A stretch of 32,507 nucleotides of DNA from Candidatus Poseidoniales archaeon (GTDB taxonomy: Archaea; Thermoplasmatota; Poseidoniia; Poseidoniales; Poseidoniaceae). A model generated the notes under the pieces. The model was not told the origin of the DNA, did not search any database, and saw only the letters and a program-made list of their open reading frames with translations. Both the position numbers and the translations under genes were made by a program. The stretch covers positions 1 through 32,507 of the forward strand of contig QQSG01000058.1 of the NCBI GenBank assembly GCA_003602665.1. The letters run 5' to 3'. Positions 910 to 31,618 of the stretch are shown here, piece after piece; the first letter of the stretch is position 1, and each line of letters begins with the position of its first letter.

Positions 910-918
910 GGGAACCAT

Positions 919-3382: not shown

Positions 3383-3394
3383 GTTCTTCATTCA
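3376..3394. terminator. 7-bp inverted repeat spanning both stop codons of convergent gltX and the CBS gene
   Basis: TGAATGA (3376-3382) and TCATTCA (3388-3394) are exact reverse complements around the 5-nt loop GTTCT. The gltX TGA (3380-3382) and the CBS-gene TGA (complement of 3388-3390) both sit in the stem. Terminator function is inferred only. Confidence 0.35.
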
Positions 3395-3804
3395 AGCGTT
3401 CCCAACGAAGGGTTGGCTGCAAGTATTGACTGTGCTTGCCGATAATCTTCAGGAGAGAAGTAACCCTCAAAACCACCATCCTCATTTACAGCAACCACTG
3501 CTTGTGGCATGCGTTCATTTACAGATTTGATAACATCAGCAATAGCATCTGTGAGGGGTACTTTCAGAACATCCATTTCCATAACTTCCTTGCATGTTGT
3601 GCCTCCAACATCGATTCCGTTTCCAATCGCTTTGAGCATCTGTCGTTGTCCAATAACTCCCTTCACTTGGTCGTCATCATCAAGAACAACAAGAATGCCA
3701 GATGGTATACTAACCAGTCTTTTACATCCCTCAACAAGGGTATCTTCTAATCCAATTGTTACGTGCTCATCATCAAGGACAAGGTCAGCTACTGTTTCGC
3801 TCAT
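3388..3804 (-). CDS. CBS domain-pair protein
   Basis: This 138-aa protein has two CBS-like units (VSIPSGILVVLDDDDQVKGVIGQRQMLKAI and PQAVVAVNEDGGFEGYFSPEDY). It has no TM or other domain. Confidence 0.8.
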   Translation of the reverse strand: MSETVADLVLDDEHVTIGLEDTLVEGCKRLVSIPSGILVVLDDDDQVKGVIGQRQMLKAIGNGIDVGGTTCKEVMEMDVLKVPLTDAIADVIKSVNERMPQAVVAVNEDGGFEGYFSPEDYRQAQSILAANPSLGTLE

Positions 3805-3843
3805 GGAGTATGCAGTAGGTTGATGTTCATGATAGTTTTGACA

Positions 3844-5883: not shown

Positions 5884-5961
5884 TCTATCCCCATACCTTT
5901 GGCTACACAACCAGCGTATAACATCAACGCAAGTCTGTGAAGAGATGGTTTGATTTTCCCT

Positions 5962-6312
5962 TCAAAGTGCTTTGTCCAAAAGAGTTCCAAGTTCCTTTTC
6001 AAACAAGCCAATTAGGGCCTCTCCGACCTCTCCTTGAAGTTCATCAGGCAGGAGACGCAATCCCAAGCGAGTGGCTGCCCTTGTAGCTTTCAATTCAGCA
6101 TAGACAGAACGTGCTTTTTGCTGGAAATAATAGGAAACCGCTTCACGGATTTCAGCATGCAAGTCAGGATCCTCTTCGATTTTGCTTCGGATGTGAAGCT
6201 TGAGTTCATCTTTCACAATATCTTTGAAAGACTCAATAATCAGATCTTCAGTGGACATCAAATCCTGTACACGCTCGCGTATACTTCCGGTTAACAGTCG
6301 TTCAATCGCCAT
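5962..6312 (-). CDS. Hypothetical small helical cytoplasmic protein (116 aa)
   Basis: ATG start, 25-nt gap to the upstream DHH-like gene on the same strand, charged helical composition, no recognisable motif. Confidence 0.45.
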   Translation of the reverse strand: MAIERLLTGSIRERVQDLMSTEDLIIESFKDIVKDELKLHIRSKIEEDPDLHAEIREAVSYYFQQKARSVYAELKATRAATRLGLRLLPDELQGEVGEALIGLFEKELGTLLDKAL

Positions 6313-6337
6313 GGCTATGCCACCTTCTCATGATGTT

Positions 6338-7240
6338 TCAATCCGTCGATTCGGAAAGATGGCCTGTTCGAAGCCAAGAGTCTAGTAGTCGACTCGCGAA
6401 AATGAGAGCCTCTTCTTTGGTTTCTGGCCATTTGCTTTGCAACACGTGCAGGATAGACGCCAAGTCTTTCTCCTGATTAGGAATCACCATTCTCTTCCAA
6501 ATAAGTTCCTCAAATCGAGCCGTCGAAATACCCTCAGTTGAAAGGGAGGGTAGACAAAATTCTGATAACGCTTGTGAGCGCTGATTTGCATTCATTTCAA
6601 TCCACAATGTACTTAATTTTTTTAACCGTCTTTCCGAAAGTCCAGGTATCATCTCGATATTCGGTTGAGAAACTTCAGGAAGAGGAACAATCTGAATTGC
6701 GCCTTCATCTCGGAGAAAATCCCTAACCAAGGTATGAATTGGATCTATGGTCGTATCAAGACCTTCCATTAACCATTGACCAGCGCCGACGTATGGTCGG
6801 AAACTCGTCGTTCTATCACCAGTTGGTGAAATCACTGATGCAAGAGCAGAGGATTGGATAACAACATCAACAGTTCCTCGCTTTATTTGGTCAGAGTGTG
6901 GAAATTGTACTTCAACTTCCTTTGGTTTTATGACAAGAATATGTTCTGAGTTCAAGTCATCTGTTTTCCCGAATGAATCGATGAAGACTATTTTTGTCCC
7001 AGTATATTTTGGAAGAATATTTTGTTCGTCACGAGGGATATGCTTCATCGGTTGAAGAAAACGTCGAGAATATGAAATCCCTGCATCGAGTAGAGCAGCC
7101 TCAAGGAAACCAAGGGCAAGAAGACCTTCTAGGTCAGCAGATGATGCTAGGACCAATGGTCCATTGGAAATGAAGTGAGATGCTTTGACAATATCTTCTT
7201 TCAATGGAGAAAGAAAAGACGTCTGAAGTAAATCGTGCAT
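6338..7240 (-). CDS. DHH/RecJ-like domain protein with degenerate catalytic motifs (possibly an inactivated RecJ/Cdc45-like paralog)
   Basis: This is a 300-aa protein. PLVLASSADLEGLLALGFLEAALLDAG resembles DHH motifs I-II with the Asp residues replaced. KIVFIDSFG resembles motif III. HILVIKPKE sits where the DHH motif would be. It lies immediately downstream of rps15, an association described for archaeal RecJ/Cdc45 homologs. The assignment is by eye only. Confidence 0.4.
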   Translation of the reverse strand: MHDLLQTSFLSPLKEDIVKASHFISNGPLVLASSADLEGLLALGFLEAALLDAGISYSRRFLQPMKHIPRDEQNILPKYTGTKIVFIDSFGKTDDLNSEHILVIKPKEVEVQFPHSDQIKRGTVDVVIQSSALASVISPTGDRTTSFRPYVGAGQWLMEGLDTTIDPIHTLVRDFLRDEGAIQIVPLPEVSQPNIEMIPGLSERRLKKLSTLWIEMNANQRSQALSEFCLPSLSTEGISTARFEELIWKRMVIPNQEKDLASILHVLQSKWPETKEEALIFASRLLDSWLRTGHLSESTD

Positions 7241-9658: not shown

Positions 9659-11881
9659 ATGGGAGGCAGGAGCACAAGGCACCGGACTGGACTGTTTCTG
9701 TTATCGATTCTTATCCTTTGTCAATTACCATTGAACACACTAGCCGATGAATCACCCATTGTTTTCGTTATTGACGAACGGGTACAGATGATAACACTAG
9801 ACGCAGACACGAGTTATGACATCTCAGAACCTGTGTCCGAAGGCGATATCATCTCAGTCGCTGTTGGTTGTGATTCATGCACTGTTTCAATTGAAGAAAA
9901 CGGCACTGTAGAAACCTCGACTTCTATCGCAACAGTCGTTGCCTCCGCAACTGGTTTCGCCAACATTTCAATCTCATCTGTTGAAACAGAGACGATTACG
10001 ACATCAATCCTCGTAGCACCTGATTCTCAACATCCTTCACAGCGTCCAGCACCAGGAGATTCTTTCACTCTTGATTCCAAAGGACGTTGCGTCTCATCCG
10101 CAGAATGTGTTGATGTTCACCGTGGGAACCTAAACACCGTATCTACTGGTTCGTATTCATCTGATTGGTTTGAATCGGGGTTAGTCCGTTCTGAAACACC
10201 CGAGTATTGGGCTATTGAAGTCTTAGAAGGAGACCTTGTTGAGTTCAAACTCCACCACACCTCGGATCATATTCGGTTTGATTTCTCCTTCCAAAATTCA
10301 ACGATGGAAACATCTCTCCCTCTACTCATTGAATCTGCGACTGGCACCAATCCGGATTTGTTAACATCAACAGAATACATCGACATCCTCGAAGATGGTC
10401 GATTGATTGTTAAAATTTCTACAACTGCCGCTGAATCCGCTTATGCATTACAGCGGTCGATTCATTCCAAATCACTTACACAACAAATTGATGATAACAC
10501 GTTCACATTTACTCAGATAGGCCATACTCAATCTCAAACAGCGTTTAGTTTCAAAGAAACGAATTTTGTGAAACTTGCACCAATGGTCGAGGACATCAAG
10601 GTTGAGTTAACTGTAATGATAGGTTCAAATTGGATCTCAATGCCTGAAATCGAGATCAGTAAAAATACTGTGAAACGTATGTATGCATATCCAAATTGTA
10701 CAATGGCAATGTTGAAAATTACCTCGGACGTCCACTGGGTCGACGTGTCAATCGAATCTTTTTCTGATGGAAATCTGAGTATTGATGCACCAAATTTTAT
10801 TCCTACAGAACCCCTTAACATTGACCCTTGGCCAATATTAGTGAGTGAAAATACTGCTAATTTTGATGGTGCATTGACGTTGGCAGCATTGGATCTAAAA
10901 GATGTATACCTCTTGTCCGTTGAGGGATGGGTAGACTCGTTACATCGTGTCCACATCGTCATAAGAACCACCAACCAAGAGTTATTGGTCAAGGTCTGGG
11001 AACTCAACCAGGATACCTTTGAAACCGAAGCAGAATATACAATTGAATTCGACCCTCTTTCAAATGAAGGAGAGATATACCTCAACGTGGGCCCTGGTAA
11101 GCACCTTATCGAGTTCACGCACAGAAATGAAAACATTCTTGCAAATCAGACGTGGAGTAATGAATTACAGAGCGTATCCTACACAATCACGACCACGAAA
11201 GTGACAACAGAAGAGGGTGAAGAACCTTGGTTCCCACCTTCCGAAGAAGCGGAACTCTGGGGTGTAGTCGTTCGTTGGATTCTTGGCTTTGCAATGATTT
11301 TGCCTGCATTATTTATGTTCTACAAAATCAAATCCACTCGTTCCAAAGGACGTCGTTTGGGAGCTGTACGTGAGCGTTTGAAGATACTCACCGCATTACT
11401 CGATAGCGGCTCAGAATCTCCAAAGCAAACGAGGAAGACGCTTGTTAAATCACTTGAAGCAGTTTCAACACTGCCATGGCAATCTGCATGTGAGTCCTGG
11501 GGAACTCCAGATAGAACGTATTCGACAGAAGGAACATCTTTAGCAATTTGGAAACTAGACCAGCGTCTTTCAAAAGAGCCAGGGAACTGGCCTTTGCTCA
11601 TTGGTTTACACACTCCAGATGAGACATGGGAAGTTTCAGCATTCCGATTTGATGCACCACATGGAAGTCCATGGAACGTAACAAACGTAGAGCCTCGATT
11701 ACTGCATCAAGGTGAAGAAATATTCATTGATACAATAGCTAAGGGAACCATGATATTCTTGACCGTTGAACTTGAAGGGGATGGAACTCAGGTGGACATT
11801 GAATTAAATGGCCATGTTGGAGGAAAGCCAAGAGGAATGAGAATTCCAACGACTCTTTCACGTTCTTCGGAAGAAGAATGA
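9659..11881 (+). CDS. Type I membrane protein: signal peptide, ectodomain of about 510 aa, single TM, cytoplasmic domain of about 190 aa (orphan)
   Basis: The signal peptide is MGGRSTRHRTGLFLLSILILCQLPLNTLA. The TM helix is VVVRWILGFAMILPALFMFY, followed by KIKSTRSKGRR. The C-terminal portion looks globular (W-rich, WEVSAFRFDAPHGSPW). I recognise no family. Confidence 0.7.
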   Translation: MGGRSTRHRTGLFLLSILILCQLPLNTLADESPIVFVIDERVQMITLDADTSYDISEPVSEGDIISVAVGCDSCTVSIEENGTVETSTSIATVVASATGFANISISSVETETITTSILVAPDSQHPSQRPAPGDSFTLDSKGRCVSSAECVDVHRGNLNTVSTGSYSSDWFESGLVRSETPEYWAIEVLEGDLVEFKLHHTSDHIRFDFSFQNSTMETSLPLLIESATGTNPDLLTSTEYIDILEDGRLIVKISTTAAESAYALQRSIHSKSLTQQIDDNTFTFTQIGHTQSQTAFSFKETNFVKLAPMVEDIKVELTVMIGSNWISMPEIEISKNTVKRMYAYPNCTMAMLKITSDVHWVDVSIESFSDGNLSIDAPNFIPTEPLNIDPWPILVSENTANFDGALTLAALDLKDVYLLSVEGWVDSLHRVHIVIRTTNQELLVKVWELNQDTFETEAEYTIEFDPLSNEGEIYLNVGPGKHLIEFTHRNENILANQTWSNELQSVSYTITTTKVTTEEGEEPWFPPSEEAELWGVVVRWILGFAMILPALFMFYKIKSTRSKGRRLGAVRERLKILTALLDSGSESPKQTRKTLVKSLEAVSTLPWQSACESWGTPDRTYSTEGTSLAIWKLDQRLSKEPGNWPLLIGLHTPDETWEVSAFRFDAPHGSPWNVTNVEPRLLHQGEEIFIDTIAKGTMIFLTVELEGDGTQVDIELNGHVGGKPRGMRIPTTLSRSSEEE

Positions 11882-18318: not shown

Positions 18319-21300
18319 TCACTGAGTGAGTGAATCGATATACTGCCATCCGAAATGGTTCCATTGTTCTTCAGTCCAGCCAGAAGGTAGCCCTGTTGGA
18401 GGAATAGGAGCAATTCCTCTAGGGTCACTTGTTTGACTTACTGGTGCTGGAGTAGATACTTGTGCAGTGACAGTTGGTTGCTGTAGTGGCTGCGGGATAG
18501 GTTGAGGGACTGGTGGTACTGTAATTTGAGGTACGGTTTTCATTTCCATCTCCTCCACGACAACATCCGTCTGGTCCGACTCGAATTCTTCATCACCGTA
18601 TTTCATCTTACGATACATAACTAGCATCCACAAAAATGCAGATAAGGAAGCAATTGCAACGAGATACATAAAGATCGCAAATTGACTATCACTGGCTTGC
18701 TCAGCAAGTGCATCACCGTCTCGAACGGTTTCTTTCTTAACGATGAGAGGATCGACAGTCATTCGATCCATTTCAACCCCATCAACGGTAACGAGTAGTC
18801 GATATTCCTGGGATTCACCAGGACCAACTTCCGCAATCACCGGCAAGGAAACAGATGCGGTTAGACCAGCAGCGACTGGGATTGTCGTGTTGGACTCTGC
18901 GTTCCAATTACCACCTTCAACCAGGCGTTGAAGGATAAAGGAAAGTTCTCCTTTTCCACCTTGATTGGCTACACTTATTTCCAATTCAGAAGAAGAACCT
19001 TGCACAGGACTTGGATTACTCCATTGAATTGAGGTATCTTCGTTATTGAAAGATACACTTGGACCAAGGAGAGCCAGTGGCCATGAGGCAAAGGGTTCTG
19101 CAACATTGTTGTTCGATGTATCAAATGGATTTCCAGAAGCATCTGAGCCTGAAACCCAAATATCAACAACATATGATGGCAAGAGGGTGGTTGCCCCCAT
19201 GTCAGTCAAGTCAATGTTTCCGGTCCAGAAGAACTGATCACCAAATGGAAGTGTCTCAGGAAGAACTGACGCTCCGCGTGAAATCTCAGCCTCACCTGCA
19301 CGTATTCTGTAGTGAAGAATCGCAGGTCTGTCCAAGTCAAATCCATTATCATCAACCGTTTCTAACATAACGAGTAGAGAGTTTGCTTCTCCAATTGAAA
19401 TTGGCGAACCTGCTGGCACTTCATTCAACATGACAGTCTGGATGGTCGGGTTTGAACTATCAACAGCCAATCTTACCCTTGGGAGAGGATCAGTTTCATC
19501 CATTGCCAAACCAGGTAAATCAGCTAATTGTAGACGGAAATCAAGATGCCCGCTATTTACTGATGGGACCAAGAGGTCGAGACTGAATTCTCCGTTCGTT
19601 CGTGGTGAAGTTTTCCAAACGTTGTCAAAGTCTCCAAAGACAACATCGAATGCACCAGGAGGTGCTGGGGTCTCGTCTTCGCTGAACAAAACACGTCCAG
19701 TTACACGGAGAGCCTGTCCAGAACCAATCAATGTTTCTTCGACTTCGTCATTGTAATGATTTGTTCCGTCTCTGAGTTCTACTGCCTTGATGTGTCCCGC
19801 TTCAGTATCAAATCTGAAGTCATTATCGAGACTCCATGCATTGTTTCCAAGACCTGAAACCTTTGTGAAACAAGGCGTATCTTCTCCCTCGTTACAAGGC
19901 TTATCAGTTACGCGGAGAACTGGAACAAAGAGTGTTTCCCCGTCAGTATCAAAGGATTCTGGGAACGACCAAGTCAATTGGAATCTCGCACGAATCAGGA
20001 GTTGACTTGCATTTCCTTCAAACGTTGAAATCTCAGAATACAGGTTGGATACTGCAATGAATTCCCCACCTGATTCAAGGTGAGCCTTTGGCATTCCATT
20101 TTCATCTTCCTGAAGTTGGATGAAGATTGAGGTTTCCTCATCGTTTACATCTTGGCCAAGTGCGAATTGAACAAACTGAATGTCTTCCCAACCATTACGG
20201 TCCGAGAGAACGACCTGGGCAGTATACATCACGCCTGGATGGAGTGGCTTTTCATCATCATGTCCGACGATACTTGAATTGGTCAAATCGACTTCTGGCT
20301 CAAACTCTTGACGTATTTGATACGTCGAAAGATCAGCATCCCAACTAGGCATTACCTGACCGGGGGCATAGCCACAAACTTGGGGAGTCGGTGGACACAC
20401 AGGGCCACCTCCCATTGCAACCTGATTATTTTGCCCGTCTTTGCCGGTGACGAAGAAGGAAACCACTTGTCCATGTACAAGCATTGAGTCATCGATGAGG
20501 CCGCTAAAGATGTTCAACCCACCTGCAATTGTTTCAGGAGAAGACAATGTCTTCTGAGTATATTCGTCTTCTTGAGGCAATCCGTCAAAGTTGAAATCAT
20601 GGCAACCTAAAGCCACAGTTGATTTACATCCTATCCAATAGTGAAGGCTAATTTGTGTCGGTGGGTCAACACTGTCTTGAATGTTAACAGTAAGACTCTG
20701 ACCACCTGGTGCAGGAGGTCCAACATGCCGTTCTTGACCATCAAACGGGAGAGCACCAAGCACAAGAGGAGAATTACCATCAAGAACCAAACGAATTGTA
20801 TTGTATCCTGGATTCGAATACTCAGAGCCATTTGGCAGATTAATAGCTTCGACATAGAAAATCATTCCACCCGGTGTGGATTCAATTGGAGATTCAAAAG
20901 TCAAATTGTAAGAACCAAAACTTGGATTTGATTCTTGAGCAAGAATAACTGGTTGACCTATTGGATCACCATCATATGACACGTTTTGTCCAAGGACACG
21001 TAGTTCGAATTCTCCAGCCAGTGGAGATAATTGTGAAGACTGAAAATGGATTGTTCCGAGGAACGAAATGTTCTGTCCACCTCGAACCCAATCTTGTGTA
21101 AACAATTGCCGCCCATCTTCATCGAAGACCTGCATTCCATCGAGTTGAATATCGTTTTCTACACGGAGTTCCATCTTTTCAGTATCCCAGTCCGACACAG
21201 CAGTTCCAAAGGAGTCTTTGACAGTAAGAATCGCTTCTGTAGCCTGTTCATCATCCCAAGACCAATCAACAGTCACTGGAATCCGAATGGTTCGCACATC

Positions 21301-23715
21301 GTTGCTATCGATTGAAGAGGTACAGTTTGAAACATCGAATTGAACGATTCCATCTGCATCATCAATGGAACTACATGTATCCCCTTGTTGCCACTTGAAG
21401 GATGGATTTTGACCATGAGAATTATTGAGAGCAGTAATGACTTCAGTGACGTAATTCACCTCATCTCCATGTGCAACTTTAATGATTAGATTTCGGGCAA
21501 TACCGTCTGGAGCAGCCATGCCTCCTTCGAAAACAGCACTAATGGCGTGCGTATTCATCTTGTAGGACACATCTATGTTGGTTATTTTGACACGTCCAGC
21601 GGTTTGTGCTTTGATGGCGAGTGGTACTTCAACAAATCCTTCTCCATTATCTGGTATAAAATCGTTAAAAGCGTCCACAAGAGTTGGTTGGAATTCAACA
21701 TCTTGACCGACGATTGAGTCATCATTTACGTTAATAGACGATTCATTCAGGAAAAGAATACTCTTCCAATCAAAGACACCATCATAGCCGACATCGATTT
21801 TTGGCTTGTCCGGATATCCTTCTTCATAGAAGAGTTCCAGACTATCTAAAACTGGTGTGATAAACGGATCTGTTGTCGTCATTGAAACAGCATAACGCAG
21901 AACATTACCTGCCCCATCGGTTGAAAAACTTGTTTCAACCATATTTTCTGCGGATTGCCATGTTGTTCCATCATCATTGGAAACCTGAACCGTGAGGGTC
22001 GTGGATGGGTCTTGTGTAGCAGTCCATTGTGGCCGAACTTTACCCACCTTTGTACCAGTAGGCTTAGCGGGAGAAATCCAGGTTCCGCTTGTTTCGTATT
22101 CAGTAGAATATTCTAGATCAACCCACCAAGATACAGCAGTAGAACCAATCAGAGTCGCTTTCCAGACGAGCTCGGTCCCTGGGTGTTCGAAATGAACGGT
22201 TGTATTGGATTCGACTTGAACCCAGTGAGTACCGTTGTCAGCAGATACCCAATAATCAACTCGATCGCCAATGGAAGCAGCAGACCACAATGTTTCCATG
22301 TTTACCGCAAGTACGTTCTCGACAGTATTGATTACAGGACCAAGCCATGTCGTTGTACCGGGTGCTGGCGTCGTCTTGTATGTCCAACTTGTACCAAACT
22401 CGTGATATGAAGGCGTACTTGACCACGTCGAGTATCCTGAATCAACAGTAAGGAATCGCTGGCCATCATAGAATAGGCCATAACCAAGCGAGGAAATACT
22501 ACGAATAGAATTCTCTGGGATCAGAGCAGTTGCTGTTCCTGAACGACCCCATGCTTCAAGTTGATCACGGTCATTGTAATATTGACCGTCTTGACATCGC
22601 ATGAAGAAATGTGTTTCGTTCATTTCTAGACCACGTGCTTGTTGGTTGGTTACACCACACTGCCAAATTGAAGAAGAGGAGGTTTGGAATGTGAAGGATT
22701 CGTCTCCTCGTTCAAGATTCCCGGCGTCATTCAATTGATAGGATTGTATTCTTCGATTCTGGTTATGCAAAATCCAAATGGTGTCATCGACTGGATCATA
22801 CGTAATACCAGTGTAGTCGCCGTTTCCTTGTGGCTGGAATGAGTTGATACAAACCCATTCATTTTCGTTTGAGATATCAAATTCTAAGACTCGGTGGTAG
22901 AGTGTATTCGCAGTTGAACTGTAGAAGTATTTGTAGCCCGAGAGGACGGCGAAAAGTCGTTCATCATCTGTTACAACCCAATCTCTGAAGCCATATTGAC
23001 CATAATAAGATGAGGAATGTTTTGAGGGCAATGTACATCCGTTTTGGTCGAGTGTAATGATGCTCTCACGTGTTCCATTATTTGGATACAATCGATGAAC
23101 GATGTTGTGAAAAGAAGTCGATGACCATGTAGAGAGATACAACCAATCGTGATGGCGAAGAACAGCTCCTTGTCCTTGAGCGTTCAAAGAGTTAGGGGCT
23201 AACTTTCGTTGTTGGGAAAAGAGGGCATCCGTTGAGTTTGATGTGTGAGGTTGGCGAACTGCGTAAGTCCCATTATCCAGCCAAGCAGTGCTGGAGGGAT
23301 TCACATCCTCGTCCATGCTGTGTGCATTAAAGGCCCGACTAACATTTGCCATAGCAAGAGTCAAGTCAGAACTTTTGTTATCCGAATTCGATGCTTCACC
23401 AGCAACCCAATGATCTCGAGTCGTGGTCGGGATAGAAGACCAACCTGTTGCTGATGCTCCAGATAGGGTCATTTGAACATCGGTTACTTCCGCTCCCTTT
23501 GGAAGTGATATCTTAGCACCGCTGTCAGCATTTCCGCCTTGATACAGTGCAATATATTCAGTCGTTCCATCACTAAATTCGTAGGTGTGTCGTGCAACTT
23601 CTGCAGCTTCTGCATTTTCGATCCAGAGTTCACTGAATGGAGACATGCTCATGCCCATAAATAGGGAAAGAAGCAGCGCTGCTATGGTTCGCCTCGAGAC
23701 AAAGTTTGCACTCAT
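18319..23715 (-). CDS. Giant membrane-anchored surface protein (1798 aa): signal peptide, beta-propeller-like N-terminal region, many beta-sandwich-like modules, C-terminal TM and a 97-aa Pro/Trp-rich cytoplasmic tail
   Basis: ATG start. The signal peptide is RRTIAALLLSLFMGMSMSPF. The propeller-like repeats include GITYDPVDDTIWILHNQNRRIQSY. There are numerous NxS/T sequons. The TM helix is FAIFMYLVAIASLSAFLWMLVMY (about 18613-18681). The tail reads VPPVPQPIPQPLQQP...PPTGLPSGWTEEQWNHFGWQYIDSLTQ. Confidence 0.85.
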   Translation of the reverse strand: MSANFVSRRTIAALLLSLFMGMSMSPFSELWIENAEAAEVARHTYEFSDGTTEYIALYQGGNADSGAKISLPKGAEVTDVQMTLSGASATGWSSIPTTTRDHWVAGEASNSDNKSSDLTLAMANVSRAFNAHSMDEDVNPSSTAWLDNGTYAVRQPHTSNSTDALFSQQRKLAPNSLNAQGQGAVLRHHDWLYLSTWSSTSFHNIVHRLYPNNGTRESIITLDQNGCTLPSKHSSSYYGQYGFRDWVVTDDERLFAVLSGYKYFYSSTANTLYHRVLEFDISNENEWVCINSFQPQGNGDYTGITYDPVDDTIWILHNQNRRIQSYQLNDAGNLERGDESFTFQTSSSSIWQCGVTNQQARGLEMNETHFFMRCQDGQYYNDRDQLEAWGRSGTATALIPENSIRSISSLGYGLFYDGQRFLTVDSGYSTWSSTPSYHEFGTSWTYKTTPAPGTTTWLGPVINTVENVLAVNMETLWSAASIGDRVDYWVSADNGTHWVQVESNTTVHFEHPGTELVWKATLIGSTAVSWWVDLEYSTEYETSGTWISPAKPTGTKVGKVRPQWTATQDPSTTLTVQVSNDDGTTWQSAENMVETSFSTDGAGNVLRYAVSMTTTDPFITPVLDSLELFYEEGYPDKPKIDVGYDGVFDWKSILFLNESSINVNDDSIVGQDVEFQPTLVDAFNDFIPDNGEGFVEVPLAIKAQTAGRVKITNIDVSYKMNTHAISAVFEGGMAAPDGIARNLIIKVAHGDEVNYVTEVITALNNSHGQNPSFKWQQGDTCSSIDDADGIVQFDVSNCTSSIDSNDVRTIRIPVTVDWSWDDEQATEAILTVKDSFGTAVSDWDTEKMELRVENDIQLDGMQVFDEDGRQLFTQDWVRGGQNISFLGTIHFQSSQLSPLAGEFELRVLGQNVSYDGDPIGQPVILAQESNPSFGSYNLTFESPIESTPGGMIFYVEAINLPNGSEYSNPGYNTIRLVLDGNSPLVLGALPFDGQERHVGPPAPGGQSLTVNIQDSVDPPTQISLHYWIGCKSTVALGCHDFNFDGLPQEDEYTQKTLSSPETIAGGLNIFSGLIDDSMLVHGQVVSFFVTGKDGQNNQVAMGGGPVCPPTPQVCGYAPGQVMPSWDADLSTYQIRQEFEPEVDLTNSSIVGHDDEKPLHPGVMYTAQVVLSDRNGWEDIQFVQFALGQDVNDEETSIFIQLQEDENGMPKAHLESGGEFIAVSNLYSEISTFEGNASQLLIRARFQLTWSFPESFDTDGETLFVPVLRVTDKPCNEGEDTPCFTKVSGLGNNAWSLDNDFRFDTEAGHIKAVELRDGTNHYNDEVEETLIGSGQALRVTGRVLFSEDETPAPPGAFDVVFGDFDNVWKTSPRTNGEFSLDLLVPSVNSGHLDFRLQLADLPGLAMDETDPLPRVRLAVDSSNPTIQTVMLNEVPAGSPISIGEANSLLVMLETVDDNGFDLDRPAILHYRIRAGEAEISRGASVLPETLPFGDQFFWTGNIDLTDMGATTLLPSYVVDIWVSGSDASGNPFDTSNNNVAEPFASWPLALLGPSVSFNNEDTSIQWSNPSPVQGSSSELEISVANQGGKGELSFILQRLVEGGNWNAESNTTIPVAAGLTASVSLPVIAEVGPGESQEYRLLVTVDGVEMDRMTVDPLIVKKETVRDGDALAEQASDSQFAIFMYLVAIASLSAFLWMLVMYRKMKYGDEEFESDQTDVVVEEMEMKTVPQITVPPVPQPIPQPLQQPTVTAQVSTPAPVSQTSDPRGIAPIPPTGLPSGWTEEQWNHFGWQYIDSLTQ

Positions 23716-23764: not shown

Positions 23765-26700
23765 CTAAGTGGTTTGACGAGAATCATACCGGATTGGGGA
23801 ACTTTCACCCCGACTTCCGTCCTGTTCATCATCATTGACTTCAAACCAGTCAACCATCCAGTCGCCATCAGTATCCCACTTTGTTGGGTCTGTTCCTTCA
23901 GCAACGTGATCGTTGTTGTAGTCTAAGAGGTACCAGCCCAACTCATGTTCTCCGACGGAACGGACAGGAGCTGTATTTGGAGCACCTGTGTAGTAAATTT
24001 CCCATGAATCTGTGAGATTACCTGCGCATTGAATTACGTGATTCGTAGCATCTTGTACCAAGAATTCGACATCATTGTCATCAACGAGATAAGCATATCT
24101 GAAATCATTACTTTGGGATTTATCCATCTTAAGATAATTTTTCACACCTTCATCCCATTGGCCAATACCGAGCATTAACGAACGGAGTTGCCACCCTTCC
24201 TGTACAACTTGACCTTCAAACGTCAGGCCAGACAATCGAACCGCATTCGGGCTTGAGAGAGATTCGGTTGTTATACCGAAATACTCTTGGAAATTTGTGT
24301 ATGGCTCATAAGAACATCCAGCTCCTGAACAATCCCAATTTCCATCTTGATCAGGGTCATAATTTGCATCGATGGCATCACGTGGGTCCATCGTAAACCA
24401 AGCAAAATCAAGATCCGGTCGCTGCAAGGTTCCAGCATTCAGCGATAATGGTAAGCAGGAATTCGTAGAGGTATCACATGCCCCTCCAGTTGCAGGATCA
24501 ATCCAGACTACGCTAATTTGGAGATAAGAAGAGTAGTTGTCGTTGGTCTCATTCCAAGCTTTAGCATACTCATACCAATCTGGAATCATGTCACCATCAG
24601 TATCGTTATCCATTGGATTTGTTCCATATTTGAACACTTCACGACCATCTGTCAAGTTGAAGTCTTGGTAATGTTCTGTCACTTGGCCATTACTAACAAT
24701 CGTCACATACGATTCTGAGTCTTTGTCGCTATCGTTGAGATCGGGTCTGGTCTCGTTATCCCACTCCATCCAGTTTGTGAAAGGAAGTGAACCAATACCT
24801 GGTTGAATAACTTGAGAAGATGGGGTGAATGTACGGGCGTCCCAATCACCTTGGACAGCAGGTACATCAAACACAGTACGCCCATACCAGCCATCAGAAT
24901 CACCATCATAATTGACGTCATATGGATTCAATGGATTTGAAGCCCAATGGTTTGCAGTCGTAGGGTTATCCATGCCGTAAAGGGCGTAACAATATTCCCA
25001 GCCATCAGGAATTCCATCAGAGTCTGAATCGGGATGTGTTGGATCTGCAACACCAACAAGGGTTCTGTTGAAATTGTTCTCATTGTACGAGTTAATCGTA
25101 TTCATTCGACTTACAGAGTCTGGTCCTTTCGCCTTGAAATCATCAATCAATGATTGTCGTGCTTGAAGAAGTGAAAGACCTTCTTCTTCCACATATGCGT
25201 TCATTGCATCCTCGCCGAAGTCAACAATACCAACCGATGCAGGCACTGAACTTCGATTGAGATATTTCCCCCAAGTTCGGGACTCCCATTCCCTTAAGTT
25301 TGAGAAACGTTCATCCAAGTCAATGGTCCCATCCTTATTGCAATCATAGCTGTCACCATCAGAATCTAAGTTGACATCCGTTTCAATTAAAGGATTTAGC
25401 CCCCAACGGTTTTCGTTAAGATCCCATGAAGTGAACCAGTATTCAAATCCGTCATACATGCCATCATCATCAGTATCAGGGTTGGTTGGATCGGTCATAC
25501 CCAGCAGAAGAGAGATGAATACATTCGGAGGTTCGCCAGACTGCCATGCATTGAAATCATCGAGTAATCGCTTCCCACGGGAATCTTTTGAGATTAATAT
25601 TTGGAACACGCGTTGTGCCTTTTTCGTTGGTTGTTGGACATCTCCATCGACGTGCATCAGAGGCGCATCAGCAGGAGCAGATATTCCATTTTCAGGATTT
25701 GATGTTGCTAAGGCGAACTCCTGCAAGTCAACCAATCCGTCATTGTCGCTGTCAAAGGTTCCATCTCCTGCGACAACTGGATTTAATGTCCATGTCATGG
25801 CGGAAATGTTCCAGGCAGTAAAGAGTAATTCCAATCCATCAATAATGCCATCACCATCAGTATCGACATTGTTTGGGTCACCTGTTGGGCCACTAATGTT
25901 GTATTGTTCTTCACTGATGAAGGCACCAAAGGATTGAGTCGTAGAAGCAGAAGGCCATTGTTGGAAGGCATATGCTGAACCCAAAGTTGTTACAAACCAC
26001 TGTGGTGATGAACGGTTTGCGTTCGTTTCTGAGAGTGCTGAATCAATGAGATTGTATTCTTCCCAGTTTGTCATTCCATCATCGTCTGCATCGAGCCAAC
26101 GGTCACTTGGCTGAATTGGATTAAGCGTCCAATCATCATCAAGTATGTTCCAACGAGCAAACCAGATTTCCCATCCATCAGGCATTCCGTCCTCATCACT
26201 ATCAGCCTTGAATGGATCACATGCACCCTTTTCGAGAGGGATTTGTGTTGCAAGTATTGCACCACTTGCTCGTTCTGCAAAAGTAGCTTCTGGAAGGCCA
26301 AAATCACTGATGTTATCGAATAAGTCTGTGTGGAAACCAGAAGGTAGTTCCATACCAGAAAGTGTTTGATTGTTGAGGAACAAATCAGTTGAGATATGAT
26401 ATTCAAGATAATTTACAAACATCTCACTCGGTTCCAAAACTCCGTTTTTGTTCACATCATATCCATCGCCATCTGGATTTTCGAAAGCATCAGAACCGTT
26501 CATTGGATTGACGCCAACTCGGAGAGGTGACCAAGTGCATTGACCGTCTGCTTCCCATCCATCTGGCAGAGTATCACCATCAGAATCAAAGAGATTCGGG
26601 TCAGGTATAGACCAAGTTGCTGCAGATTCTGGACTCTCCCCATAATCTTCAAACAGGTCACCTGCAAGTCCAGCAAGTCGAACTAACGACCATTCATACT

Positions 26701-29506
26701 CACACAAATTAGCAAGTCCGTCTCGATCAGCATCCCACCCTGCATCTTCTGCTCGAGTAGGGTCAAGAGACCAGTTATTACCGCCATTGAACGAATTTCC
26801 AATCCATCTACGATGCTCAATCTCCCATCCATCCGGCATACCATCACCATCTGTATCGATTACAGTAGGGTCTGTTCCTACATCGAGTGCATTCGTTGTT
26901 GTGTAGAGCGTTCTTGCTTGTTCTCCTAGTGTTTCATCACAAAGATAAATCAATTGAGGATTGTAGTAACAGTCGAAATTAGTTTCCTCTAAGAAATATC
27001 CGAAATATTCAGAACCATCCGAAAGACCGTCTAGATCAGAATCGCTTTGATTCGGAAGGGTCGAATTGTAACCCTCATCTGTACGGGCAATAAAGCGATA
27101 TTCTTCCAAATTGCTCCACAATCTGTCAAGGGATCCATCCTGATTCAAATCAAGACCGTCAACATCTCCATCCAACAAGGCATCCCAAGGATCGGTTGGG
27201 TCAAGTCCGTAGGCTATTTCCCAACCATCAGGCATCCCATCGCTGTCAGAATCGTTTGCTCCGGGGTCAATCAATTCGAGATTAGCAAACCGTCCGGGGG
27301 CAGCGCCAGCAAGAACGTATGTCTGACCGTTCTTTTCTAGAGTAGCAAGCGAAGCAAGTTCACCCGGTAGTTGAGATTGTGTCTGGAGACCATAAACATC
27401 CAGATGATTTCCTGCAAGAACCCACAATCCGGCAGATGATCCGACTATAATCTCGTCACCTGTAGGTAAAATTGAATGGATATTATTTGACTTTGAGAGT
27501 TCATCGGCATCGCCCCCTGGATGTTCAAGTAATCCACCAAATGTCATGTCATTAATTTCTAAATTCAATCGGTGCAAGCCAGAAGGTGTTCCAATCCAAA
27601 GTACAGTCGGATTGTCTTCATTTGGCCCATCAAGGTAGAGCGCTTGTACTTCAGCAGGGTTTCCACTTGCTCCGAGATTCAATGTTCGCAATTCATCAAT
27701 ACGATTTGAGATTAGAGAAGGATTCGGGTCGAAAAAGAAGCGCCATGATGGCGTAGCTTCGTCTCTGCCAGTCGCAGATTCAAGGGTCATGAGGCCACGT
27801 TCAGTTCCTACGTAGAGTACAAGGCCACCTCCAGGAACACTTCCATGTGTTACTTCTGTAACTGTGACTTCCGATTCAGAAAGTGTTGCTTTGAGATTAA
27901 GGCCCAGTTCAAATGTTTGTGAAATCAACCCACCTGTTGTGACTTCGAATACTGCGCCATCACCATTTGAACCAAGAGCGATAATCTGTTGTGATGATCC
28001 GTCGATCGCAAGCTGTGTTAATGCAAAGAGCGATACGGCTTCACTGGAAGACCAAGAGTCAATCGGCTCCAAGAATCCATCGACTTGGATTGCGGCAACG
28101 TGCATTCCGTGCGAGGTCGCTATTGCAACTGAATGAGGCCCATCATCAGATTCTACGAAGATTGCCTCGTATCCGGTGAACCCTTGAGGGAACCAATAAT
28201 CTTGAGTTGTTTCTAGTTCGTAATCAAGTACTGTCATTCCGTATCGTGTAAGCACATATGCAGTCGAATCTTCGACAAGTATGCTACGGACATCGTGGTG
28301 CATGATTGCCATGCTGCCTTCTACAGCATTGAACGTTAGCGGATAGTTGTAATAAGAAGAATCGTTCGAACCAATCTGAATTTCTTTTAGTCCAGACATG
28401 ACAGTATTACCTTCGTCGTTGTGTATGTAGAACTCTTCCAGATTGGATAACGATTCTCCAAGTGCCAAAGCAGTTTCAGTACGACTTACATCAATTGAAA
28501 CTACACCGTCTCGATTCAAATCCCAACCATCACGATCGATGTCGAGAAGAGCATTTGAACGATTCAATGGGTCCAATCCAAAGTGCACTTCCCATCCATC
28601 AGGCATTCCATCACCGAACGAAGGATAGAGTGGACGAATAGAGAAACCATCCCAACTGTATCGATCTGAATCTTCTAGAAGAGGATCTGTACCAAGCCAC
28701 AAATCTTCGCCAACAACTGACGTGGCATTCGTAGTACAGGCCGGAAGTAAATTTTGGAATGAAGCGTTAACACCGGTATTAATGAACGGCCATTGCGTAA
28801 TCACAGAACCTTGCGGGAGGGTAGCCGAACACCATAGACCATCAAGTTCAGTGGTGAAGTTGCTGGGTGAACCAAATCTATATTCCTCTGGAGAAGTGTA
28901 TTGCTCAGCTACTGAAATGAATCCATCTCTGTTCACGTCAAATCCATCATCATCTGGATCATCAGTCATGTCGCTGTTGTTCAGAGGATCGAAATACGGG
29001 CAAACATATCTGAGTGTTACGACATCGAACCCACCTGCACGAGCACACATAGCGGCTTCAAATCCATCAGGCATGCCATCGCCATCTGTATCCGACAAAC
29101 GTGGGTCGAGATACAATCGATCTCCATTCTCATCCAATAGACCCGTTAGTCCTCTTGAAAAACCCGGGTCATTACAATTTGCCGGATATGGCCAACAGTA
29201 CTCTTCCGTATTGTTTAGCCCGTCTCGATCTGTATCGAAATTAGCATCCGAAGCATCGTCTTTATCCATACCTTCCATCGAAACAAATCGACCATCGATT
29301 GCGCTAAAGTTCACCCATTCCTCGAAAATGTTCTCGTGCACATCAGGGATTCCATCGCCGTCAGTGTCCGTAGTTGGTGGTTTTTCACCTGTTGTGTCAT
29401 CGGGGTGAATATTCGAGACCGGAGAAATCGTAGGAAACTGCGACATGAAGAGAAGCCCTGCGATTACTGCGAGAGTGGAGAGTAAGGTTGTCTGACTTCG
29501 TCGCAA
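23765..29506 (-). CDS. Giant secreted Ca-binding repeat protein (1913 aa): about 25 thrombospondin-type-3-like/EF-hand-like loops flanking a central beta-propeller-like region, with no TM anchor
   Basis: The start is TTG at 29504-29506, with AGGTG 5 nt upstream. The signal peptide is MRRSQTTLLSTLAVIAGLLF. Recurrent motifs include DTDGDGMPDGWE, DSDSDGMPDGWE and DADRDGLANLCEY. Canonical EF-hand loops include DVNRDGFISVAE, DVNKNGVLEPSE and DCNKDGTIDLDE. Residues about 385-745 carry propeller-type strands (VGTERGLMTL, LWIGTPSGLHRL, VGSSAGLWVL). The C-terminus is hydrophilic. Confidence 0.85.
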   Translation of the reverse strand: MRRSQTTLLSTLAVIAGLLFMSQFPTISPVSNIHPDDTTGEKPPTTDTDGDGIPDVHENIFEEWVNFSAIDGRFVSMEGMDKDDASDANFDTDRDGLNNTEEYCWPYPANCNDPGFSRGLTGLLDENGDRLYLDPRLSDTDGDGMPDGFEAAMCARAGGFDVVTLRYVCPYFDPLNNSDMTDDPDDDGFDVNRDGFISVAEQYTSPEEYRFGSPSNFTTELDGLWCSATLPQGSVITQWPFINTGVNASFQNLLPACTTNATSVVGEDLWLGTDPLLEDSDRYSWDGFSIRPLYPSFGDGMPDGWEVHFGLDPLNRSNALLDIDRDGWDLNRDGVVSIDVSRTETALALGESLSNLEEFYIHNDEGNTVMSGLKEIQIGSNDSSYYNYPLTFNAVEGSMAIMHHDVRSILVEDSTAYVLTRYGMTVLDYELETTQDYWFPQGFTGYEAIFVESDDGPHSVAIATSHGMHVAAIQVDGFLEPIDSWSSSEAVSLFALTQLAIDGSSQQIIALGSNGDGAVFEVTTGGLISQTFELGLNLKATLSESEVTVTEVTHGSVPGGGLVLYVGTERGLMTLESATGRDEATPSWRFFFDPNPSLISNRIDELRTLNLGASGNPAEVQALYLDGPNEDNPTVLWIGTPSGLHRLNLEINDMTFGGLLEHPGGDADELSKSNNIHSILPTGDEIIVGSSAGLWVLAGNHLDVYGLQTQSQLPGELASLATLEKNGQTYVLAGAAPGRFANLELIDPGANDSDSDGMPDGWEIAYGLDPTDPWDALLDGDVDGLDLNQDGSLDRLWSNLEEYRFIARTDEGYNSTLPNQSDSDLDGLSDGSEYFGYFLEETNFDCYYNPQLIYLCDETLGEQARTLYTTTNALDVGTDPTVIDTDGDGMPDGWEIEHRRWIGNSFNGGNNWSLDPTRAEDAGWDADRDGLANLCEYEWSLVRLAGLAGDLFEDYGESPESAATWSIPDPNLFDSDGDTLPDGWEADGQCTWSPLRVGVNPMNGSDAFENPDGDGYDVNKNGVLEPSEMFVNYLEYHISTDLFLNNQTLSGMELPSGFHTDLFDNISDFGLPEATFAERASGAILATQIPLEKGACDPFKADSDEDGMPDGWEIWFARWNILDDDWTLNPIQPSDRWLDADDDGMTNWEEYNLIDSALSETNANRSSPQWFVTTLGSAYAFQQWPSASTTQSFGAFISEEQYNISGPTGDPNNVDTDGDGIIDGLELLFTAWNISAMTWTLNPVVAGDGTFDSDNDGLVDLQEFALATSNPENGISAPADAPLMHVDGDVQQPTKKAQRVFQILISKDSRGKRLLDDFNAWQSGEPPNVFISLLLGMTDPTNPDTDDDGMYDGFEYWFTSWDLNENRWGLNPLIETDVNLDSDGDSYDCNKDGTIDLDERFSNLREWESRTWGKYLNRSSVPASVGIVDFGEDAMNAYVEEEGLSLLQARQSLIDDFKAKGPDSVSRMNTINSYNENNFNRTLVGVADPTHPDSDSDGIPDGWEYCYALYGMDNPTTANHWASNPLNPYDVNYDGDSDGWYGRTVFDVPAVQGDWDARTFTPSSQVIQPGIGSLPFTNWMEWDNETRPDLNDSDKDSESYVTIVSNGQVTEHYQDFNLTDGREVFKYGTNPMDNDTDGDMIPDWYEYAKAWNETNDNYSSYLQISVVWIDPATGGACDTSTNSCLPLSLNAGTLQRPDLDFAWFTMDPRDAIDANYDPDQDGNWDCSGAGCSYEPYTNFQEYFGITTESLSSPNAVRLSGLTFEGQVVQEGWQLRSLMLGIGQWDEGVKNYLKMDKSQSNDFRYAYLVDDNDVEFLVQDATNHVIQCAGNLTDSWEIYYTGAPNTAPVRSVGEHELGWYLLDYNNDHVAEGTDPTKWDTDGDWMVDWFEVNDDEQDGSRGESSPIRYDSRQTT
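23840..29368 (-). repeat. Dispersed imperfect coding repeats of about 30 nt (plus-strand consensus about CCATCCATCAGGCATNCCATCNCCATCNGTATC) encoding D-x-D-G-D-G-M-P-D-G-W-E
   Basis: Copies read by eye are at 23840-23875, 25002-25030, 26171-26203, 26555-26587, 26825-26857, 27221-27253, 28592-28618, 29061-29092 and 29333-29368. Further diverged copies lie near 24580, 25450 and 25840. Confidence 0.8.
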
Positions 29507-29670
29507 AAAAACACCTAAGCGGCAAACGCCGCATTATTTGTCCTCGTCTCCACGCTTATAGGAATGATGGAGCGTTGTTCATACACTGAACCGCTTTTAG
29601 AAGCCCAGAATTCAATGGTTTTGACCTGAATCATGCGGTGTATTCAATATCCGTCTGTTGCCCCATCAAC
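29507..29670. promoter_or_regulatory. Divergent intergenic region between the giant-protein operon (-) and the MBL/pilin-like block (+)
   Basis: At about 165 bp this is the largest spacer in the window. A/T-rich TATA-like elements are CTTATA at 29555-29560, ATTATTT at 29533-29539 and CTTTTAG at 29594-29600. A short GC hairpin, GCGGC-aaac-GCCGC, lies at 29519-29532. Promoter positions are not verified. Confidence 0.35.
29512..29516 (-). promoter_or_regulatory. Shine-Dalgarno-like AGGTG upstream of the TTG start of the 1913-aa gene
   Basis: The minus strand reads cttAGGTGtttttTTGcgacga, a 5-nt spacer. This supports the TTG start, which is also the only start that retains the signal peptide. 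Confidence 0.5.
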
Positions 29671-30577: not shown

Positions 30578-31618
30578 ATGCAGCGACGAGAGCGAAATAA
30601 AGAGGATGATGGGGTAAGTGAAATCCTCGGCGTCATCATGATGTTGGCAATGGTTGTTAGCATCATGGGTGGTGTTTTCGTATTTCTAAATCCGTATCTT
30701 GTCGCCTTCCAAGACAATACGAATTGGAACAGTGCCAACAACATTGCAGATCGTATTGAAGATCGGCTTGACGTCGTGGGAGATGCTCCAAATGGAACAG
30801 GAACTCGCCAAGCCCTCTCATTACAAGCTTCTTCAATCAATCCAGTACAACTTGTGGAAGAATGGGTTCTTGCAGCGGATTTAACGCCGTATGAAGTGGT
30901 CCAAGTGGAAGAGATCAATAGCAGTTCATTCCATTTTACCTCACTAAATGAATCTGTTACATCAGTTATCGTCACAAATCCTACGAATTCAGTATCGTTC
31001 GCAGTTGAACCGACGTTTGATTCCACGGTAATTGAACATAATTTGACCAGTGAAACATACTTGATAGTAGACATGTACAACGAAGGAGGTGCTCATGTTC
31101 ACCGATGGGCTCGATTTGTGTTATCTGGATTGAGCATTAGCACCAACATCGATGGTGGCCTCAATCAAATTGTTTTGATTAATGATGCACGAATATCAAA
31201 AGATCCGAGCACATCATGGGAAATAGAAAAAGCACCACGTCTACGTCTTGACACCCTTGTCGATGGCACAACAAGACTTTCCCTTGTCCTTACAGATGTT
31301 CAACTCAGCGAATCCCTGGGCAATGGACCAAATGTTGGGTTTAAAGTCGAATCAATGGGACCTATTCAACTCTTTACGGGAGAGGCATACAACTTGAGAG
31401 TCATGGTGAAAAACACATTGCACTCAATCGTGGATCCCCAATATCATGAAATTTGGCTGACCGATTACACACTTAATCGAGCCTCAGGTACACTTGATGA
31501 ATTCATCGGCATCTCACCATATCAAAGGGCAAGTGGAATAGATGGATTTACTGTAGAAACCCAAAACCTTGAACTCTCTTTGGAGATTGATGTTCGTCGG
31601 ATGGTGGTGAACGGATGA
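30578..31618 (+). CDS. Archaeal type IV pilin-like protein (class III signal peptide, Pilin_N/DUF1628-type N-terminus), 346 aa
   Basis: The N-terminus MQRRERNKEDDG|VSEILGVIMMLAMVVSIMGGVFVFL matches the archaeal prepilin pattern: charged leader, G/A cleavage site, then a VSxxIGVIxMxA hydrophobic helix. GAGGGGGG lies about 7 nt upstream of the ATG. The remainder is beta-rich and has NxS/T sequons. Confidence 0.65.
   Translation: MQRRERNKEDDGVSEILGVIMMLAMVVSIMGGVFVFLNPYLVAFQDNTNWNSANNIADRIEDRLDVVGDAPNGTGTRQALSLQASSINPVQLVEEWVLAADLTPYEVVQVEEINSSSFHFTSLNESVTSVIVTNPTNSVSFAVEPTFDSTVIEHNLTSETYLIVDMYNEGGAHVHRWARFVLSGLSISTNIDGGLNQIVLINDARISKDPSTSWEIEKAPRLRLDTLVDGTTRLSLVLTDVQLSESLGNGPNVGFKVESMGPIQLFTGEAYNLRVMVKNTLHSIVDPQYHEIWLTDYTLNRASGTLDEFIGISPYQRASGIDGFTVETQNLELSLEIDVRRMVVNG

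Follow-up and report, generated by a model that had tools for sequence, protein, structure and literature searches.

The window analysed here is the whole stretch of 32,507 nucleotides from the Candidatus Poseidoniales archaeon contig QQSG01000058.1, and its content is that of an archaeal housekeeping region (RNase HII, GluRS, ribosomal protein S15, ArcTGT, DnaJ, a GT2 glycosyltransferase and a NUDIX protein). On its minus strand lies a gene for a protein of 1913 residues (Table 1), which is the subject of this report. The protein belongs to a strongly constrained family in which a common calcium-loop module is placed at fixed sites together with a predicted propeller, and which is confined to one order. 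It has a mass of roughly 210 kDa, contains 11.7% Asp and 1.3% Lys and is the most acidic product encoded in the window, with a net charge of about -13 per 100 residues.

Table 1. Positions in the window of the gene for the 1913-residue protein, of its parts and of the downstream neighbour
Feature	Coordinates	Strand	Basis
Whole gene, 1913 aa plus stop, TTG start	23765..29506	-	open reading frame; full-length orthologues known
AGGTG Shine-Dalgarno-like motif, 5 nt 5' of the TTG	29512..29516	-	read from sequence
Conserved N-terminal hydrophobic helix, residues 6-24, after MRRSQ	29435..29491	-	orthologue alignment, AlphaFold2, hydropathy
Modules M1 (43-105), M2 (135-211) and M3 (293-361); residues 43-361	28424..29380	-	module hidden Markov model, loop analysis
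Predicted seven-bladed beta-propeller, residues 372-745	27272..28393	-	AlphaFold2, Foldseek, blade motifs
M4 (748), A-only copy (818), M6 (880), M7 (970), M8 (1098), M9 (1211), M10 (1340) and M11 (1489); residues 748-1543	24878..27265	-	module hidden Markov model, model
Mixed alpha/beta C-terminal region, residues 1544-1913	23768..24877	-	module hidden Markov model, AlphaFold2, Foldseek
Conserved hydrophilic C-terminal tail DGxRG[DE]SSP[IL]RYDSRxT, residues 1896-1913	23768..23821	-	orthologue alignment
Downstream co-directional neighbour, 1798 aa, 49 nt away	18319..23715	-	signal peptide, C-terminal transmembrane helix, Pro-rich tail

Calcium loops and the two-loop module

Strict D-x-[DN]-x-[DN]-G loops occur 25 times in the protein, against 0.67 +/- 0.83 expected (maximum 5 in 2000 shuffles), which agrees with the approximately 25 counted by eye in an earlier interpretation made from the letters alone (hereafter the sequence-only reading). 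When degenerate loops are included the number rises to 31, and 19 of these satisfy a full 12-residue EF-type pattern (D, N or S at positions 1, 3 and 5, G at position 6 and E or D at position 12). Positions 1, 3, 5 and 12 are about 100% conserved across 32 aligned orthologues, and approximately 30 of the loops are predicted to bind calcium. The loops fall into two separate classes, an A loop (D[ST]DxDG[MLI]PDGWE) in which position 2 is always S or T, and a B loop (DxDxDGxxNxxE[YF]) in which position 2 is variable and often Pro. In the AlphaFold2 models a short helix comes after the A loop, then a hairpin that contains Trp and ends in L[ND]P, then the B loop with a further helix (N.EEY), and the unit so formed spans 52-77 residues. 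In five or six units the B half is of a long form, in which a second loop overlaps the first (for example DPDDDGFDVNRDGFISVAE). Each of M1-M3 consists of an A loop, linker and B loop, with M2 and M3 having the long-form B half, while between residues 748 and 1543 the modules are parted by unique inserts that are helical at 1284-1334 and 1403-1482.

A hidden Markov model (HMM) built from 8 hand-picked units gave 14 matches, corresponding to 11 complete modules (one of them split into 1631-1659 and 1704-1742) and two copies comprising the A loop only (at 818 and 1874). Units outside the seed were recovered at 298-339 and 1489-1540, and in a leave-one-out analysis each of 10 units was recognised by the model of the other nine at 29-57 bits. 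The recurring two-loop module noticed in the sequence-only reading is therefore real, but the approximately 50-residue super-repeat into which it had been placed lacks the implied periodicity. Cutting at the D[ST]DxDGxPDGWE loops yields pieces of 62-149 residues with unique helical or β inserts in between, and with spacing this irregular the modules, at their fixed positions, do not constitute a periodic tandem repeat. Comparison of copy number among orthologues, which the same reading had proposed, gave a constant 12-14 module matches (mostly 13) in all 32 aligned sequences. A variable-copy adhesin was rejected on these counts.

The sequence-only reading had further assigned the two halves of the module to different types, the first TSP3-like and the second EF-hand or dockerin-like. 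The distinction between A and B classes holds, but not the contrast in type, since both loops fit the 12-residue EF-type ligand pattern and, in a search of the PDB with a profile of 74 module sequences, one calmodulin alignment spans both of them (calmodulin EF-hands 2 and 3). The best match in this search was the lanmodulin-like EF-hand protein 8fns (E 6.8e-5); calmodulin reached E 9e-5, and lanmodulin itself (6mi5) was also among the best. The B loops are EF-hand-like as claimed, and the three canonical loops quoted in that reading are located at residues 190, 1017 and 1388.

Several B loops, such as those at residues 183, 1010 and 1717 (nt about 28955, 26474 and 24353), carry Pro at position 2; among the orthologues this Pro is invariant at residue 1011 and in the majority at 184 and 1718. 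Pro at loop position 2 is a feature that marks the EF-hands of lanmodulin, and lanmodulin-like chains top the PDB matches of the module profile.

The predicted propeller

Residues 372-735 are modelled by AlphaFold2 as all-β at a predicted local distance difference test (pLDDT) score of about 90. Foldseek aligns residues ~372-745 with seven-bladed propellers over about 360 columns (E 7e-10 to 7e-9) at template modelling scores of 0.58-0.65 (normalised to the WD40 targets) and sequence identities of 8-17%, the matches including RACK1 (4aow), the WD40 domain of PAN2 and the BT4663 periplasmic sensor (4a2l). The motif hhhG[TS]xxG occurs seven times, once per blade. Residues 372-745 thus have, as a prediction, the fold of a seven-bladed β-propeller, and the propeller-like interruption of the repeats described in the sequence-only reading is borne out by the modelled strands, the structural matches (E about 1e-9) and the seven blade motifs. 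The blade motif resembles the Reg_prop signature, and the seven four-stranded blades are common to Reg_prop and WD40 propellers; the likeness to the Reg_prop protein 4a2l is at the level of the fold only and is no better than that to WD40 propellers. No Reg_prop, Y_Y_Y, WD40, PQQ or FG-GAP family of Pfam matches the window protein, and no Pfam propeller family matched any of the five orthologues tested.

The propeller is the least conserved part of the protein. Identity to distant orthologues is 26% in the propeller, against 45-51% in the other regions, 45% in the non-loop scaffold and 70% at loop residues, and the propeller evolves about twice as fast as the remainder. Conserved residues within it are H554, W637, H645, S690 and W695. 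It also differs in its N-x-S/T sequons. The whole protein has 27 where 17.6 would be expected, 11 of them conserved in 80% or more of the orthologues, and this suggests that the protein is N-glycosylated. Across orthologues sequon density is 0.66 per 100 residues in the propeller and 1.76 elsewhere, a difference for which the lower Asn content of the propeller (4.2% vs 6.9%) accounts only in part. The window protein has no sequon between residues 382 and 750.

The C-terminal half and overall fold

AlphaFold2 was run on two overlapping segments with alignments of 74 sequences, giving a pLDDT of 87.5 and a predicted template modelling score of 0.78 for residues 1-1100, and 91.8 and 0.79 for residues 1000-1913. 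With confidence this high, both halves are predicted to be defined bodies and not beads on a string. The mixed α/β C-terminal region, modelled at a pLDDT above 90, contains the A half (1631-1659) and B half (1704-1742) of the split module and the last A loop (1874-1891). Foldseek found no significant match for the C-terminal half (best E 2.1 in the PDB and 0.013 in a viral library); the method is weak on loop-rich structures and this null is an absence of evidence, yet it is notable at such model confidence. A profile of the whole protein gave only chance-level matches against PDB sequences.

The protein ends in a conserved tail, and in 85 loci plus the window (about 1.4 Mb of Poseidoniales DNA) its core pattern SP[ILV][RH][YW][DE] is confined to the ends of this one family. 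A C-terminal sorting signal shared among proteins was rejected on this distribution, and the tail does not correspond to a known sorting signal. No Kyte-Doolittle window after residue 30 is hydrophobic, and thus there is no C-terminal anchor: the layout of PGF-CTERM/archaeosortase substrates or of other C-terminally anchored proteins (motif, transmembrane helix, basic tail) is absent from this hydrophilic and conserved C-terminus, in accord with the sequence-only reading, which had described neither a PGF-CTERM-like tail nor a transmembrane segment.

The start codon and N-terminal helix

In the 32 aligned orthologues a conserved MRR[SK]QTxLL N-terminus begins with a Met that lines up with the TTG codon, and residues 1-20 are conserved at the protein level. 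The upstream start, with its Shine-Dalgarno-like motif, is therefore correct as the sequence-only reading proposed. Several database entries are shortened at this end, among them a protein of 1893 residues (P0001) that is otherwise 100% identical to the window protein. This and three further identical or near-identical orthologues (P0001-P0004, 1893-1894 residues) start in the database at Met21 (the segment concerned is 29444-29506 on the minus strand). A start at Met21 removes the conserved MRR and the hydrophobic segment behind it, so that the export signal would escape automated annotation.

Residues 6-24 exceed 1.6 in a 19-residue Kyte-Doolittle window and form a hydrophobic region of 16-19 residues behind MRRSQ, which AlphaFold2 models as a helix followed by a low-confidence linker of ~20 residues. 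The hydrophobic segment is kept in both families of the order (Poseidoniaceae and Thalassarchaeaceae). By eye, no obvious A-x-A signal-peptidase site follows it in the aligned N-termini. The helix may serve as a Sec signal peptide or remain uncleaved as a signal anchor, and its conservation together with the lack of an obvious A-x-A site makes the anchor a real possibility. The statement in the sequence-only reading that the protein has no transmembrane segment thus holds for the C-terminus but overlooked this helix; its description of the protein as secreted fits the export-type signal, from which the protein is probably exported.

Other types of N-terminal signal were considered and rejected. 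A lipobox is ruled out, as that reading had stated, because the first Cys is residue 104, and no Cys occurs in the aligned orthologue N-termini. Class III archaeal signals have the consensus [KR][GA] directly before the hydrophobic stretch; here RRSQ or RRKQ precedes the helix, with no G or A at -1 by eye. Nor does the N-terminus match the twin-arginine translocation (Tat) motif by eye.

Distribution and conservation

A word-indexed search matched 451 clusters. The best 120 of these are full-length proteins of 1875-2039 residues or fragments, at 43-100% identity, and come from Poseidoniaceae, Thalassarchaeaceae and metagenome-assembled genomes (MAGs) labelled 'Euryarchaeota'. A filter-only HMMER scan with residues 714-1913 against 1.84 billion cluster representatives gave 1872 matches, among which full-length coverage was found only in Poseidoniales clusters (P0079, P0110 and P0121, the last including members of 1957 residues); the other strong matches are proteins of 434-5858 residues matched in 5-31 short stretches. 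In GTDB, scanned with one genome per species, at least 80 loci were found, and the best 80 all have Poseidoniales-type content, with residues 1-1913 matched where the contig allows. These searches place full-length orthologues in the Poseidoniales only, in both of its families. Two of the loci (L025 and L051), with full Poseidoniales synteny, lie inside MAGs labelled Salinimicrobium sp. and Salipiger bermudensis, and these bacterial labels most likely reflect binning contamination.

Every genome examined, from either family, has a single copy of the gene at the same genomic position, and the 32 aligned orthologues are 1892-1946 residues long. A divergent metallo-β-lactamase (MBL)-fold gene lies upstream in the 80 loci wherever flanking sequence is present. 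The window protein is 42.8% identical to the Thalassarchaeaceae orthologues, compared with between-family identities, on the same contigs, of 43.5% for DnaJ and ArcTGT, 51% for the MBL-fold protein and 32% for C15-NUDIX, indicating that the family is about as conserved as DnaJ at the sequence level.

Comparison with known families

The TSP3-type character that the sequence-only reading gave to the A loop has a counterpart in TSP3_bac (PF18884), which matches the window protein at 22.6 bits in 3 stretches (E 9.5e-5; cutoff 25) and five of five orthologues (P0007, P0051, P0085, P0091 and P0113) at 25.3-50.9 bits, above the cutoff. The family as a whole thus qualifies for TSP3_bac, with the window protein just short. 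Giant TSP3_bac proteins (P0143, P0146 and P0151) share with it the unit D.DGDGMPDGWE...GL[DN]P...D.D.DG..N..EY, including a long form with an inserted D.N.DG....E loop, and are likewise extracellular and Asp-rich. In these arrays 7-31 copies of the unit follow one another head to tail, in company with Laminin_G_3, RCC1 and other domains: P0143, which lies on an archaeal contig, and P0151 are head-to-tail arrays of this module, and P0146 matches TSP3_bac at 393 bits alongside Laminin_G_3 and RCC1. The window family, in contrast, has 11 modules and 2 half-modules at fixed positions, with unique inserts and a propeller, in a number that is constant across the order. The occurrence of the module in many other giant proteins marks it as a building block that was already known. 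A 998-residue protein encoded at locus L005 (8001-10997), almost wholly made of tandem two-loop modules, stands beside RNA polymerase and ribosomal protein operons of an archaeon; tandem-array relatives therefore exist in archaea too, and not just in the bacteria that the Pfam name implies.

Membership of the other families suggested in the sequence-only reading (dockerin, EF-hand and Reg_prop) did not follow. The EF-hand families PF00036, PF13499 and PF13202 reach 12.2, 12.4 and 10.9 bits against cutoffs of 25-30 (E 0.14-0.34), and Dockerin_1 (PF00404) gives no match at E<=1. The likeness to EF-hands and dockerins consists of the 12-residue loop with ligands at 1, 3, 5 and 12 and Gly at 6 (19 of 31 loops) and of the exiting helix; unlike in EF-hands, an entering helix precedes only some B loops, and unlike in dockerins there is no cohesin context. 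The eukaryotic thrombospondin type 3 profile that the reading had also named (TSP_3, PF02412) gives no match at E<=1, and neither the 60 best PDB matches of the module profile nor the search with the whole-protein profile include a thrombospondin or COMP chain. Eukaryotic thrombospondin and COMP are secreted glycoproteins that need calcium for their fold. The window protein resembles them in its contiguous Asp-rich calcium loops and little regular secondary structure, but differs in having Glu at loop position 12 and a short helix after each loop, and the lectin-like TSP_C domain was not found in it.

In NCBIfam only sub-threshold matches were obtained, to CglD (NF033765, 44.7 bits against a cutoff of 400), MtsD (NF047639, 38.7 against 800) and XopAW, those to CglD and MtsD in the Asp-loop region only. 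CglD of Myxococcus xanthus is a characterised surface protein that supports Ca2+-dependent adhesion and traction (bioRxiv 10.1101/2023.10.19.562135). CglD and MtsD are likewise rich in DxDxDG loops, each being a surface protein with about twelve of them that have been termed COMP-like; they differ as bacterial outer-membrane lipoproteins with a VWA/β-integrin-like domain and EGF-like disulfide repeats, and no VWA domain was detected in the window protein. The giant 'dockerin-type' proteins of Omnitrophota combine EF-hand/dockerin with bacterial TSP3 repeats and are predicted to be membrane-anchored and extracellular (bioRxiv 10.1101/2023.11.21.568195), but they are bacterial, at least 30,000 residues long, highly repetitive and fragmented in assembly, whereas the window protein is archaeal, 1.9 kaa (thousand residues) long and fixed in architecture. 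Marine Thaumarchaeota also have TSP3-repeat proteins, which respond to peroxide stress.

A candidate tethered cell-surface protein

We tentatively favour a reading in which the protein is a core, tethered cell-surface glycoprotein of Ca. Poseidoniales, serving as a receptor or adhesin with a variable binding head. The MRR and hydrophobic segment would direct the chain through the Sec pathway and would then probably be retained as a membrane tether, leading into the ~20-residue flexible linker. Seawater contains about 10 mM Ca2+, and outside the cell the ~30 Asp-rich 12-residue loops, arranged as 11 two-loop modules and two extra A loops, would each bind calcium. The bound ions would staple the chain, which has little regular secondary structure, and the unique inserts that it carries into one rigid, very acidic, N-glycosylated scaffold. 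This conserved scaffold would display the Reg_prop/WD40-like seven-bladed propeller, whose fast evolution and low sequon density single it out as the putative ligand-binding head, whose candidate ligands are glycans or proteins carried by particles, phytoplankton or adjacent cells. Sec export, topology, calcium binding and the folding driven by it, N-glycosylation and the binding role of the propeller are here predictions from sequence and models. The reading is supported by the characterised relatives of the repeat, such as CglD, which are calcium-dependent surface or adhesion proteins. Two points weigh on the other side: the propeller matches no curated ligand-binding family in Pfam, and the universal presence, fixed length and housekeeping-like conservation of the protein are unusual for an adhesin and fit a structural role in the envelope at least equally.

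Such a structural role would be that of a lattice-forming envelope protein, similar to those of surface layers (S-layers), in which the calcium-loop scaffold gives Ca2+-dependent lateral contacts and the propeller points outward, facing viruses and grazers. We rank this second, because it is well matched by the presence of the gene, once and at an unchanged position, in all genomes examined irrespective of family or lifestyle, and by conservation equal to that of housekeeping genes; length and module number are also constant. Many S-layer proteins are acidic, sequon-rich and calcium-binding, as the window protein is or is predicted to be, and a rapidly evolving domain displayed on a conserved body would suit an outer face; no S-layer protein of Poseidoniales is named in the literature searched. 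Points against a lattice are that the protein has no Ig-like or β-sandwich domains and matches no S-layer family in Pfam or NCBIfam, and that archaeal S-layer proteins mostly diverge fast and are anchored C-terminally or via a partner. The more specific proposal that this is the main S-layer-like protein of the envelope, tethered by its N-terminal helix, with the propeller at the outer face as a likely virus receptor, is less probable.

In third place, the protein could be released, or bound only loosely, and act in matrix and cohesion as the thrombospondin-like Mts and CglD proteins of myxobacteria do; its signal peptide would be cleaved, and it would link cells to one another or attach to a partner in the membrane, for instance the 1798-residue protein encoded downstream. 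The weak CglD and MtsD matches in the Asp-loop region point this way but lie far under their cutoffs; the conserved hydrophilic tail could be a docking motif, and aggregation has been suggested for these archaea (Rinke et al. 2019, PMC6461757), while the apparent lack of an A-x-A site argues against cleavage. Across the 80 loci the neighbour, a type I membrane protein whose gene is probably co-transcribed with the giant gene, follows the latter in almost every Poseidoniaceae locus and also in a clade of 44-48% identity. It is missing, while the giant gene stays, from the Thalassarchaeaceae loci at 41-43% identity and from two Poseidoniaceae loci (L010 and L027), and all the named homologues listed for it are from Poseidoniaceae. 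An obligatory anchor was rejected on this basis: a protein absent from many loci, including most of those in Thalassarchaeaceae, cannot be the general anchor, although it may be a lineage-specific partner in Poseidoniaceae. We give the released form a low probability, behind the tethered receptor or adhesin and the envelope lattice. Finally, a calcium or lanthanide buffer or store, which the B-loop Pro residues and the best PDB matches (8fns and 6mi5) might suggest, is very improbable because those matches are sums of weak Asp-rich stretches, position 2 of the A loops is invariably S or T, buffering would require neither a 7-bladed propeller nor a fixed length of 1,900 residues, and the window offers no lanthanide-enzyme context.

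Relation to earlier reports and significance

Among the planktonic archaea of surface waters the Poseidoniales are the most abundant; they lack cultured representatives, and 'thrombospondin genes' are widespread among them and have been read as adhesion genes (Rinke et al. 2019, PMC6461757). With that study and those on CglD, Omnitrophota and Thaumarchaeota, the kind of protein is already known, and since the repeat and the Poseidoniales 'thrombospondin genes' are familiar the surprise is limited; what is new is an uncharacterised, order-specific family with an unusual fixed, non-tandem arrangement of a known module. The literature searched held nothing specific in the way of S-layer, proteomic or expression data on the protein.

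The cell surface of Poseidoniales is essentially undescribed, and a single large surface protein at the same locus in all genomes examined, its calcium sites invariant and its exposed domain evolving fast, could offer a handle for capturing cells or enriching them with antibodies; it might also be what viruses use as a receptor, or what the cell uses to bind particles and phytoplankton. The protein is also a natural example of a common calcium-loop repeat used as fixed "staples" in a large non-repetitive fold. Were the lattice to prove correct, calcium-stapled EF/TSP3-type modules, and not Ig-like domains, would constitute a new archaeal envelope architecture, in a group that ranks among the most abundant archaea of the surface ocean.

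Other genes at the locus

The transmembrane helix of the 1798-residue neighbour spans about residues 1677-1700 and is followed by a Pro-rich tail of ~100 residues; the protein matches no Pfam family, apart from a weak match to CARDB. On the other side of the giant gene, a 346-residue DUF7289 protein with an archaeal pilin-type N-terminus (DDGVSEILGVIMMLAMVV) is encoded at 30578-31618 on the plus strand, and the presence of this pilin-like gene parallels that of the 1798-residue neighbour across the 80 loci. Two further proteins of the window are predicted to be exported and belong to no recognised family, one of 688 residues with C-terminal hydrophobic segments (3844-5910, minus strand) and one of 740 residues (9659-11881, plus strand); their positions are kept in Thalassarchaeaceae loci, with weak similarity that is C-terminal only. 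In three Thalassarchaeaceae loci (L001-L003) the upstream region (positions 1-6413) contains a 3171-residue open reading frame with an STT3 (oligosaccharyltransferase) domain, a Peptidase_S8 gene and the gene for a 1399-residue Beta_helix/Big_7 protein, so that giant genes for surface proteins and glycosylation are grouped close to the TSP3 gene.

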